Shown here in pieces: positions 41,083-50,176 of a stretch of DNA of 64,000 nt. Origin of the DNA: an uncultured Gemmatimonadota bacterium (lineage in GTDB: Bacteria; JAAXHH01); assembly GCA_951812955.1 (NCBI GenBank), contig OX638340.1, forward strand, positions 3,488,001 through 3,552,000, read 5' to 3'. Both the position numbers and the translations under genes were made by a program. The notes below the pieces were generated by a model. That model was not told the DNA's origin. It ran no database searches and worked only from the letters and a program-made list of their open reading frames with translations. Within the stretch, counting starts at the first letter, position 1. Each line of letters starts with the position of its first letter.

Positions 41083-44000
41083 ATGCCAATATCATACAGG
41101 CTGAGTACAATTTTCAATTTTCATTTCTTTTATAGCGTCGTCGCGGTGCTGTCATTCTTCGTACTGGTTACCTGTGGCAAGGACAGTCCGACCCAACCCA
41201 GGCCGCCAAGTCAACCGCCGGTCCAACCACCCACGCCGGTCCAGCCACCTCCTGCTCCGCAACCCTCTCGCATCACCATCACGCCATCCTTGGTGAATCT
41301 CATGGCGATCGGTCAGACGACGCAGCTCACGGCCTCGGTCCTTGATCAGAACGGGCAGCCAGTTCCCGGCGCGGTCGTTGCATGGTCCAGCAGCGATGAG
41401 GATGTCGCCACCGTGAGCGGCCAGGGGTTGGTAACCGCGGTCAGCAACGGTACGGCCACGATCACCGCCATGGCGGGAAGCGTGTCGGCGACCGCCAGCG
41501 TGCGGGTCTCCCAGACCGCTGGCAGCGTCAAGATCGATCCGGACATGGCCACCCTGATGGCCATTGGGGAAACAGCGCAGCTCACGGCCGTGGTACTCGA
41601 CCAGAACGGGCAGCCAGTTCCCGGCGCGGTCGTTGCATGGTCCAGCAGCGATGAGGATGTCGCCACCGTGAGCGGCCAGGGGTTGGTAACCGCGCTCAGC
41701 AACGGTACGGCCACGATCACCGCCATGGCGGGAAGCGTGTCGGATTCTGCTTTGGTCACGGTCCTCGTTCCCAGAACGGACCGGGATGTTCTGATTGCCT
41801 TCTACGAGAGCACTGGTGGTGAGCAATGGACGGTCAGGTCAAACTGGCTTAGCGTACATCCTCTTGAAACGTGGCTTGGCGTGACCGTCAACTCGGAAGG
41901 CCTGGTAACGGAGATCGACTTGCCGAACAACAATTTGCGCGGACCGCTCACGTCCGAGTTAGGTTATCTGGAAGAGCTCGCGACGCTCCGTCTGAACCAT
42001 AACCAGTTAACGGGTCACATTCCTCCGGAACTCGGCCGACTGGCGAAACTGCGTCACCTGGTGTTGTCCAGCAACCAATTGACCGGAGTGATTCCGACGG
42101 GACTCGGTCAATTAACCGGATTAGAGGAACTGTTGCTGTCCTTCAACCGTCTTTCAGGATCCATACCGGGGGAACTGGGTGACCTGAAGGGACTCAAGAG
42201 GCTGTCGCTTTCAGTCAATGAACTGGATGGACCGGTCCCGGCAGAATTGGGACGACTAAAACAACTGACATCGTTGCGGCTGGACCAGAATCGGTTGTCC
42301 GGGTCAATCCCGCTACACCTTGGCGGGATGACGGTTTTGCGGTCAATGGTACTCGCCGACAATCAGTTAACAGGTGCAATACCAGCCCACCTGTCCTCGT
42401 TGGATAATCTCGAAGAACTGGTGCTGGATCACAACAGACTGGAGGGCGGCATACCCTCACAGTTGTACCGACTTGCCAATCTGAAACGGCTTGGACTCGC
42501 CGGCAACCGGTTATCCGGCGGCGTGCCGGCGTTCTTGGGCAGACTCACCAACCTTACGCACCTGCATCTGTTCTCGAATCGCGGTCTTTCCGGTGTCCTG
42601 CCGCGTTCATTCACCGGTCTTCAACTGGAAGAACTGTTGCTTGAAGGCACGCAGCTTTGCGTACCGCCGGATGACGATTACGAGGCATGGTTGGACCAGA
42701 TTCCAGTGAAGACGGTAACGACCTGCTCCAACCTGGAGTCCAGCGTGTTGGCAACGCTGTACAACGCAACGAATGGAATAAACTGGGCGGATAACACGAA
42801 TTGGCTGAGCGACCGGCCATTGGGTACATGGTATGGCGTGACCACGGACGCCGATGGCTACGTGACGGGTATCGATCTTACGAACAACAATCTGAACGGG
42901 TCCGTACCGGGTGAACTGGCTGGCCTTTCGAAGCTCAAATCGCTGAATCTCAGTACCAACGGTTTTTTGAGAGGGCAGTTACCCCGGGAACTCATCAATC
43001 TTGAACTTCGGGAACTGCTGCTGGAAGACACCCGGTTGTGCGCGCCGCCGGACGCCGAATTCCAGGACTGGCTTCAGACCATTCCGGCAAGAAGCGTATC
43101 CACATGTGATGATCTTGATCTCAATTCGCTTAAGGCCCTGTTCGCGCTCTTCAACGACACGAACGGTCCGGGCTGGCATGACCGGACAAACTGGAACAGT
43201 GATGCGCCGCTGGAGGAATGGTACGGCATCACGGTAGACGAGGACGGCAGGATAACCGAACTGAATCTTGCCGGCAACAATCTCAGCGGCTCGCTCCCCG
43301 CTGACCTGGCAGCACTAACGGAACTGGAACGGCTCGATTTCAGCGACAACGAAGGGCTGACGGGCCCGCTACCGCACGAATGGACAGCACTGACCCTCGA
43401 GTATCTGCGGGTGGAAGGAACGCAGTTGTGCGCTCCACCGGATACCGGGTTTCAGGCCTGGTTGAACGAAATCCCCGAGTACGGCATACCGGAATGTACC
43501 GATACCAGGCCGGACTGGGCTGATACCAATCCTGAATGGGATGTCCTCGAACTCTTGTATAATAGTACGAACGGGAAGGACTGGACGAACAATGAGAACT
43601 GGTTAAGCGAAGCGCCCTTGGATCAGTGGTACGGCATAAAGACGGACGAGGAAGGAAGAGTGACTGAACTTAATCTGGAAGACAACAACCTGTCTGGCGA
43701 ACTACCCCCAAGACTGGGAGATCTAATCGGACTCACGTCGCTGGAACTTTCGTTTAATAAACTTTCGGGTTCAATTCCCGCTGAACTCGGACAGTTGACA
43801 GCCCTTGAAACTTTGTTTCTGGACGATAACGCCCTTTCGGGTCCGATACCCGCCGAACTCGGACAATTTTCCGGCCTGCGAAGATTGGATCTGGGCTGGA
43901 ACGATCTCTCTGGCGTGATTCCCGCTGAACTCAGGCAGTTGACGGGCCTTACCTCGCTCGGTCTGCGCTTCAACAACCTTTCGGGCGTGATTCCCGCTTT

Positions 44001-49000: not shown

Positions 49001-50176
49001 GAGATCGATCCCGACAGGACGTTGGACTCCGCGCTCGGTATCGCCGGCCGCATCCCCGAGACGGGAAGGATTACGCCGGATGTGCGAGAGCTTCCGACCT
49101 TCGATCTGACGCTGATCCCTTTTTTATGGACAGAAGGTCCCGATCATTCCGTGTTGTCCGCAATCGAAGGGCTCACGCCGGAATCCGATCTGATGCGGCC
49201 GACCCGAGATCTGCTGCCGGTGAGCGACTTCCAGTTGTCGGTGCACGCGCCGGTATGGACTTCAGTGGATCCCGTATCCGATAACGTAGGCGATCTCGGA
49301 CCCGAATTGGAGGCCATCTATGCCCTTGAAGGAGAAACAGGCTACTATATGGGCATCTTCAGACTGGCCGGACCGCAGGGCGGACTACTGGGGATAGCTC
49401 AGGATATACCCAGCTACTTGAGTTTCTCCATCCTCGATCCTTACGTCATTGCACATGAACTGGGGCACAACCTGAATCTCTATCATGCGCCATGCGGCGG
49501 TGCTCGCGGCCCCGATCCGTTCTACCCATATGGGGATGGTTCCATTGGGGTTTCCGGATACGATATGATGAATGAATCCCTGGTGAGTCCGCAAACCTGG
49601 GACCTGATGAGTTATTGCGAACCGATGTGGATCAGCGACTATTCCTTTTCCAGGGCGTTGAGCCATCGAATCGCGCTGGGCGCTACGATCCCGCCGGCTT
49701 TTGCGGCCGTCACGAGAGGCCTGCTGGTCTGGGGGGGTCTGGACGAAGCCGGGGAACTCACCCTCGAGCCCGCCTTTGTAGTTGACGCGCCGCTTAAGCT
49801 GCCGGAATCCGATGGTCCGTATACCATCAGGGGAGAGCGCGAAGACGGCAGCAATCTGTTCTCACTTTCCTTTGCCATATCGGAATACGCCGATACCGAG
49901 GGAGGATCCTTCGCTTTCATTGTCCCCGTGCGGGAGACCTGGCCCGGAAACCTGCACCGTATAACGCTTTCCGGTCCCGGGGGGTTTGCCGAGATCGACG
50001 GAGACGGGGACCGTTACATGGCGCTCATGCGGGACAGCGTAACCGGCGAGGTCAGAGGCATTCTCAGAGACTGGCCTGATCCATCGGATACCTCGGCAGC
50101 GGGCCGGCGTATCCCGCCCGAACCCGGGATGGAAATAACAGTCAGCGGTGGTGTTCCCGATCGGGATTCGTGGTAG
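46064..50176 (+). CDS. Giant lipoprotein (1370 aa): four capped LRR modules and a C-terminal metzincin-type protease domain
   Basis: Lipobox [17 protein letters not shown]. N-caps are [40 protein letters not shown] and three more, and each module is capped (for example [28 protein letters not shown]). The C-terminal domain runs from ~48700 with [11 protein letters not shown] and DLMSYC. Confidence 0.92.
   Translation: [1370 protein letters not shown]
49454..49486 (+). other. Zinc-binding motif [11 protein letters not shown]
   Basis: cat gaa ctg ggg cac aac ctg aat ctc tat cat, in frame with 46064-50176. Confidence 0.8.

Follow-up and report, generated by a model that had tools for sequence, protein, structure and literature searches.

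We analysed two adjacent genes, A and B, in a 64,000-nucleotide stretch of DNA (the window; positions 3,488,001–3,552,000 of contig OX638340.1, assembly GCA_951812955.1, forward strand; coordinates below are those of the window) from an uncultured Gemmatimonadota bacterium. Their products are probably lipid-anchored modular proteins of the cell surface, in which strings of capped leucine-rich repeat (LRR) modules would direct a StcE-like protease to distinct extracellular targets. In the proposed arrangement, a lipoprotein-type leader would provide lipid anchoring and surface display, and a stalk rich in proline, which in A continues into Big_2 spacers, would precede a string of capped, disulfide-stabilized LRR modules. 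These modules would bind extracellular protein or glycoprotein ligands of a host or matrix, bringing the C-terminal protease to its substrate. A and B would carry similar proteases and act on different targets, since their LRR surfaces are entirely different. The distal modules would keep the specificity in each lineage, seen as a conserved concave face, and turnover of the protease-proximal module 4 by unit duplication, loss and replacement would retune it. The two genes are kept adjacent and are probably co-transcribed.

Gene A (41083–46005, 1640 residues) and gene B (46064–50176, 1370 residues) are adjacent open reading frames (ORFs) on the + strand, separated by 58 nt (46006–46063), with an AGGA sequence 11 nt ahead of the ATG of B. 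An initial annotation of the window had described these two ORFs and the gap between them, two Big_2 domains in A, four capped LRR modules in each protein and a protease domain in both, and all of these features were recovered. Pfam places Big_2 in two stretches of A (94 bits) and gives zero matches in B, searches with regular expressions and hidden Markov models (HMMs) find exactly four N-caps and four C-caps in each protein, and the HExxH region of both has a weak match to Peptidase_M66. The order of parts in A, as delineated from the ORF translation, Pfam and the caps, is leader (41083–41175), proline-rich linker (up to 41268), two Big_2 stretches (41269–41775), LRR module 1 (41776–42726; an N-cap, ten units and a C-cap with a Cys pair), LRR modules 2 and 3 (42727–43497; separately capped, with two units apiece), LRR module 4 (43498–44553; 11 homogenized units, adjoining the protease) and a putative M66-like metzincin region (44554–46002; 483 residues) with the conserved end ...PEPGLEIVVSPGVPEPDSW. 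B consists of a leader (with Cys24), a linker, LRR modules 1–3 (46286–47656, comprising 46286–46882, 46883–47263 and 47264–47656, as assigned from unit layout and HMM scans), LRR module 4 (47657–48697; 11 units) and a putative M66-like metzincin region (48698–50173; 492 residues) with an HExxH-type motif at 49454–49486. The modules had also been said to differ in unit number, which is the case for module 1 (ten units in A and five in B) and not for modules 2, 3 and 4 (two, two and 11 units in both). The cap strings quoted in that annotation are located at residues 522–548 of A and 246–273 of B.

The C-terminal unit appears to be a metzincin that is distantly related to peptidase family M66, of which formal membership is borderline. 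The Pfam model Peptidase_M66 (PF10462; cut-off 20.6 bits) scores 23.2 bits for A, 18.7 for B and 20.7 for a third gene of the window, paralogue C (14815–20364, − strand, 1849 residues), which has the same leader and protease region with eight CARDB and additional Ig-like domains in place of the LRR modules. Some relatives have been named 'M66 family metalloprotease' automatically by NCBI. A carries the motif HEIGHNINLYH at 45283–45315. In an alignment of 50 family sequences His244, Glu245, His248 and His254 (HExxHxxxxxH), Met295 (in DLMSYC) and Cys298 are invariant, and Met295, about 40 residues past the third His, is the candidate for the Met-turn. The AlphaFold2 model of the last 483 residues of A, with a mean predicted local distance difference test score of 86 and a predicted template-modelling score of 0.87, consists of a β-sandwich, an α/β catalytic domain and a second β-sandwich. 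The catalytic domain of this model is predicted to adopt the metzincin fold, and the modelled Ig-like N-terminal domain followed by a catalytic domain is the arrangement of StcE. The C-terminal tail, PEPG[LM]EIxVSxGVPxxDSW, is kept in A, in B and across the family. The initial description of the protease domains and tails as well conserved is thus borne out for the tail; the protease regions themselves are just 53% identical, compared with 43–49% for the LRR modules. A phmmer search with the single sequence against PDB sequences gave zero matches. Glycoproteases are indistinguishable from other proteases by sequence (PMC7542363).

The LRR parts of both proteins give strong Pfam matches to LRR_1, LRR_8 and LRR_4, and neither protein has a Pfam match to LRRNT_2. 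Unit layout and positional consensus define a 24-residue unit, LxxLxLxxNxLxGxIPxxLxxLxx, of the plant-specific LRR type. The N-cap, which occurs four times in each protein, has the pattern NWLSxxPLxxWxGV (in its longer form …W….NWLS..PL..W.GV…G.V..L.L..NNL.G), and the C-cap has the pattern GTxLCxP...C (longer, L.L.GT.LC.P.D..F..WL..I……C), with its two Cys residues 21–22 residues apart. Both caps match the capping type of plant LRR ectodomains. From the last Cys of one C-cap to the N-cap helix that follows there are only about 0–10 residues, and about six residues separate the last Cys of module 4 from the opening strand of the protease unit. One unit of module 4 of A is present as a perfect tandem duplication (72/72 nt, 44092–44235), reflecting either a very recent doubling of the unit or an artefact of assembly.

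The leader of A has a hydrophobic segment that ends in the lipobox-like ...VLVTC (Cys31), followed by GKDSPTQP, and that of B ends in ...ILVRC; in both, the conserved Cys is followed by G-[KR]-D-S-P-T and a proline-rich stretch. The seven Big_2/LRR/CARDB paralogues of the window, like their orthologues, all carry the motif C-G-[KR]-D-[ST]-P-T. The paired Cys residues in every C-cap and the two conserved Cys residues of the protease fit an extracytoplasmic protein, and the window encodes Omp85-type and outer-membrane protein (OMP) β-barrel proteins, from which we infer that the organism is diderm. The two Big_2 domains of A share 76% protein identity, and 190 nt of the first (41299–41488) and second (41554–41743) copies are 92.6% identical in DNA. 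Since the closest orthologue of A, in genome L005 (described below), carries a single Big_2, this DNA identity suggests that the doubling in A is a fairly recent internal domain duplication.

The pair had been read initially as a duplication followed by divergence of the recognition part. A local tandem duplication, after which the protease was held and the LRR part diverged under relaxed or diversifying selection, would account for the position of the genes side by side on one strand, their collinearity and their equal unit counts in modules 2–4. Indeed, A and B are homologous over their full lengths, and the protease (53% identity) is more similar than the leader (44%) or LRR modules 1 (43%), 2 (48%), 3 (49%) and 4 (46%). 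In the aligned units of module 4, scaffold positions are 82% identical, compared with 12% for concave-face positions and 23% for the other variable positions; corresponding units are as similar (45%) as non-corresponding ones (45%). The binding faces of A and B thus appear to share nothing, and the 46% identity of module 4 would be that of the repeat consensus. The contrast between protease and LRR parts is, however, small and comes close to similar divergence of both.

A recent or local origin of the pair is largely refuted by the wider family. In the family comparison the proteases of A and B are about 50–51% identical, compared with 48–50% for A and C and 48–52% for B and C, and the A–B value (50.2%) equals the values for A and for B against the other lineages (49.5 and 50.6%, respectively). 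Neighbour-joining trees recover the A, B and C clades each with 100% bootstrap support and an exclusive A+B clade in 0 of 100 replicates. Between A and B the two-unit modules are 48–50% identical, which does not exceed their identity to the modules of Latescibacterota proteins, a different phylum (50–53%). At the DNA level, a single 215-bp match (71% identity) in the active-site region is found between the genes, and no gene-conversion tract links A or B to the other LRR genes of the window, the best candidates being short N-cap matches (73–82%). Moreover, the architecture is family-wide, the pair is present in three other genomes with orthologues of 65–83% identity, and dN/dS is below 0.45 in all parts. 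We therefore consider the local-duplication explanation quite unlikely. As far as these comparisons go, A and B appear to be anciently separated members of the family and not the products of a fresh duplication, and an ancient duplication at this locus may still lie behind them.

A and B each have their own orthologues, with 74–83% identity, and are adjacent in three other genomes. In L005, a 3.5-Mb contig of a metagenome-assembled genome (MAG), the orthologue of A (1523 residues) is followed after a 58-nt spacer by that of B (1332 residues). One protein encoded on the L005 contig shares a 90%-identity cluster with a protein of a MAG labelled Gemmatimonadetes. In L002, scaffold ROBB21-1 of a sponge study, the spacer is 59 nt and the genes downstream encode MR_MLE and M14 proteins as in the window. 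The second gene of L002 (9747–14354 of that scaffold) has five modules with 11/2/2/2/7 units; its leader to module 3 is orthologous to B (56–73% identity), and its module 4 and protease are at the baseline level (42 and 49%, respectively). Because this last part is at baseline identity and falls elsewhere in the tree, the gene appears to be a mosaic, with module 4 and the protease from another lineage of the family. In L001, a 2.6-Mb contig (positions 4932–11662), the B-orthologue is frameshifted and split into four ORFs with an IS110-family transposase inside (8123–9247, − strand), and it is therefore probably a pseudogene; it keeps two Big_2 domains, which are absent from B in the window.

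The window, L005 and L002 share a spacer of conserved length with the motifs …TCTTGT…TTCAGGA…CTCTATG; no terminator-like hairpin was found in the spacer between A and B. Co-transcription of A and B is plausible on this basis. Promoter and terminator scans gave as many matches as expected from shuffled sequences and are not evidence either way, since these counts are at chance level.

The initial annotation had proposed a comparison of dN/dS between protease and LRR parts. Between A and B, dS is saturated or incomputable for module 1 and the protease and unreliable elsewhere, and orthologue comparisons were used instead for this reason. The values were obtained against the L005 orthologues, for which dS is measurable, and earlier orthologue pairs agree with them. 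The dN/dS ratios of A are 0.17 for the protease, 0.29 for Big_2 and 0.21, 0.33, 0.39 and 0.20 for modules 1–4; those of B, which has no Big_2, are 0.18 for the protease and 0.43, 0.41, 0.32 and 0.30 for modules 1–4. Purifying selection acts on all parts of both genes, most strongly on the protease (0.17–0.18, against 0.20–0.43 for the LRR modules). This pattern is a moderate version of what had been proposed.

Divergence of the recognition part, as initially suggested, is not uniform along the proteins. In module 1 of A the concave face is better conserved between orthologues than the other variable positions (87 versus 72% identity; dN 0.06 versus 0.16). Module 4 is variable: in A, the homogenized units of which it consists differ between the window and L005, and in B, where it is the fastest-changing part relative to the L005 orthologue, the concave face is 22% identical (dN 0.80, with dS of about 0.9–1.1), the other variable positions are 38% identical and the scaffold is 82% identical. 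These figures do not show positive selection. The comparison suggests that the protease-proximal module 4 is the mobile, fast-changing part of the proteins and that the distal modules are stable.

Several observations weigh against the reading of A and B as surface proteins that target an StcE-like protease through their LRR modules. The residue preceding the Cys of the lipobox (position −1) is Thr, Arg or Ser, which is atypical for the classical pattern [LVI][ASTVI][GAS]C, and lipidation is uncertain for this reason. The Pfam M66 match spans only profile positions 183–252 (70 of 306) and is under the cut-off for B, and the Gly of the metzincin motif HExxHxxGxxH is replaced by Asn or Ser. A family profile searched against PDB sequences gave weak adamalysin motif matches only, with StcE absent from the matches, and a Foldseek search of the PDB was uninformative. 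The sequence implies no ligand for the LRR modules. The higher dS of module 4 in the B–L005 comparison (1.1, twice the value of 0.54 for the protease in that comparison) may reflect misaligned non-orthologous units and not selection. The trees were built by neighbour-joining only, and the association of the family with sponges is based on MAG names and one sample label.

A different function could be envisaged in which the proteins are nutritional exoproteases, with the LRR, Big_2 and CARDB parts acting as adhesins or spacers of a generic kind that keep a protease of broad specificity close to particulate or matrix protein for amino-acid scavenging. This would suit the neighbouring M14 carboxypeptidase and enolase-superfamily (MR_MLE) genes found both in the window and in L002, although these lie on the opposite strand. 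Paralogue C, in which the same protease follows CARDB instead of LRR modules, and the very large size of the family, with multiple copies per genome, would be equally in keeping with it. A generic adhesin is harder to reconcile with the concave face of module 1 of A, the conservation of which among orthologues points to a specific ligand, or with the ordered module grammar that is kept across phyla. Nutritional scavenging is, on balance, unlikely, and the finding would be an ordinary one should the proteins prove to be general scavenging proteases. It is also conceivable that the metzincin processes its own chain, or the LRR-only paralogues, and releases capped modules as soluble factors, each module being an autonomous capped domain and LRR-only multi-module paralogues being encoded in the window (for example at 2537–9769, with nine modules). 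We rank this speculative reading low because the junctions between modules are very short and leave little accessible linker; no conserved cleavage motif was seen in the proteins, and self-processing is very improbable. Surface-anchored proteases addressed by their LRR modules remain the explanation that we favour for A and B.

The pair belongs to a large family, common among uncultured marine bacteria that appear to be largely sponge-associated. A family profile retrieves 8,760 cluster representatives at E ≤ 1e-3 and at least 2,203 at E ≤ 1e-30, and at least 235 relatives are present in species-representative genomes. The best matches have 900–2,750 residues and the protease is always C-terminal. 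An architecture derived from the lengths of database entries (480–830 residues) was rejected: most entries start in the middle of the LRR part owing to gene-call truncation or assembly gaps, and the full loci encode 900–2,750 residues. The module grammar 'long – 2 – (2) – long (10–15) – protease' recurs in members from several phyla, and at many loci family genes stand in tandem, as pairs or triples. Members are encoded by MAGs from Longimicrobiales and Candidatus Palauibacter (Gemmatimonadota), Latescibacterota, Acidobacteriota, Chloroflexota, Gammaproteobacteria, Opitutales and Pseudohongiella, several of which have sponge-derived names (e.g. P. irciniicola and P. ramosifaciens). Sponge-associated MAGs, among them those of Latescibacterota, are enriched in LRR proteins, and many sponge-enriched genes have been reported as laterally transferred (PMC8163846).

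A broader and more doubtful proposal is that bacteria living with hosts, largely sponges, share the family horizontally as a toolkit, in which plant-receptor-like LRR ectodomains would act as interchangeable address tags that direct a StcE-like protease of the cell surface. Module 4 would be a fast-evolving specificity cassette, changing by unit turnover and recombination between paralogues, and the distal modules would recognize a fixed ligand. If this is true, bacteria would possess in this family an equivalent of variable LRR recognition systems, one coupled directly to the proteolysis of host-surface or matrix proteins, and the LRR 'eukaryote-like proteins' of sponge symbionts would gain a concrete biochemical output. 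LRR and further 'eukaryote-like' repeat proteins have repeatedly been reported to be enriched in these symbionts. In the present family the repeat domain is covalently joined to an enzyme with intact catalytic residues, from which a testable hypothesis follows, namely that it cleaves (glyco)proteins of the host or matrix in a targeted manner, possibly as part of a symbiosis. A and B offer a natural experiment in this respect, being two conserved neighbours with similar proteases, unrelated binding faces and a fast-changing protease-proximal module, and such enzymes might find use as targeted proteases or glycoproteases.

Literature searches on the fusion of LRRs to M66 or other metzincins, on the module grammar and on the conserved gene pair, including in sponge symbionts, found no description; the family is auto-annotated yet undescribed in the searchable literature, and can be regarded as a variant of M66-like metzincins and of LRR–enzyme fusions. 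The M66 mucinases StcE (E. coli O157) and TagA (Vibrio cholerae) are about 14% identical to the present proteases, with the Pfam match limited to the active-site segment. They differ in the Gly of the zinc-binding-type motif (Asn or Ser here), in their C-terminal β-sandwich and in the conserved ...PEPGLExxxSxGxPxxxW end found here, and the one to five LRR modules that precede the proteases of this family are absent from StcE. StcE and TagA are exported by type II secretion, whereas the leaders of A and B look lipoprotein-type. The caps and 24-residue units resemble those of the 'plant-specific' class of LRR ectodomains (PEPR1, GSO1, SERK, SOBIR1 and PGIP). Unlike the plant LRR receptors, A and B are bacterial, have no transmembrane or kinase part and carry several capped domains per chain, with the Cys residues of the C-cap spaced by 21–22 residues.

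The logic of LRR substrate recognition fused to a catalytic domain is shared with the IpaH/SspH LRR-NEL E3 ligases and with XopL, XopAE and XopAC of Xanthomonas. The only NCBIfam models that match A and B are those of LRR-bearing type III effectors and Leptospira LRR proteins, far under their cut-offs; among the former, the XopAE, XopAC and XopL models match the LRR parts. The IpaH, SspH and Xop proteins are cytosolic effectors injected by type III secretion that combine one LRR domain with ligase or AMPylase domains, whereas A and B begin with a leader of the Sec or lipoprotein type, carry several LRR domains with disulfide-bearing caps and contain a metalloprotease. The eukaryote-like proteins and repeats (ELPs/ELRs) of sponge symbionts show LRR enrichment in lineages in which the present family also occurs, and the published work on them consists of counts of repeat domains.

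Other genes of the window encode related domains. An entry identical in sequence to the product of paralogue C is present in the public protein collection. A gene next to paralogue C (20382–22145, − strand) encodes a protein with Big_2, PKD and Big_9 domains and seven LRR units. At 2537–9769 (+ strand) lies a 2410-residue protein with a lipobox-like leader, one Big_2 domain and nine capped LRR modules (5/10/5/6/7/7/6/9/7 units), without a protease, and directly after it (9799–11454, + strand) a 551-residue protein in which two Big_2 stretches are combined with a single module of 11 units. Upstream of A, the segment 36602–39482 (+ strand) contains a Big_2–LRR–CARDB gene (792 residues) that is overlapped at its end by a 190-residue ORF with a PPC pre-peptidase C-terminal domain, and the two may be a single frameshifted gene. 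The syntenic scaffold L002 lacks this block in the interval from the AIRS gene to gene A, and the block therefore looks like an insertion.

The A–B pair is flanked by short ORF fragments at 40812–40922 (...NPSLGYLAPAEV) and 50265–50501 (...HYVNEFAGRFNDRDK), which may be transposase ends, the former resembling the C-terminus of an integrase of the insertion-sequence type IS3 and the latter being IS1595-like. Three small ORFs follow at 50577–51502 (83, 79 and 97 residues), each with one hydrophobic segment and a coiled-coil-like tail; small ORFs are likewise found after the pair in L002. The third of those in the window contains a 33-nt tandem repeat (51335–51457, 3.7 copies), and a 17-nt repeat is located at 50865–50921. 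The G+C content falls to 0.474 in the segment 22001–24000, compared with about 0.6 elsewhere in the window, and this dip spans an unannotated 235-residue ORF (22272–22979, − strand) and an OMP β-barrel gene (23025–23600, − strand).

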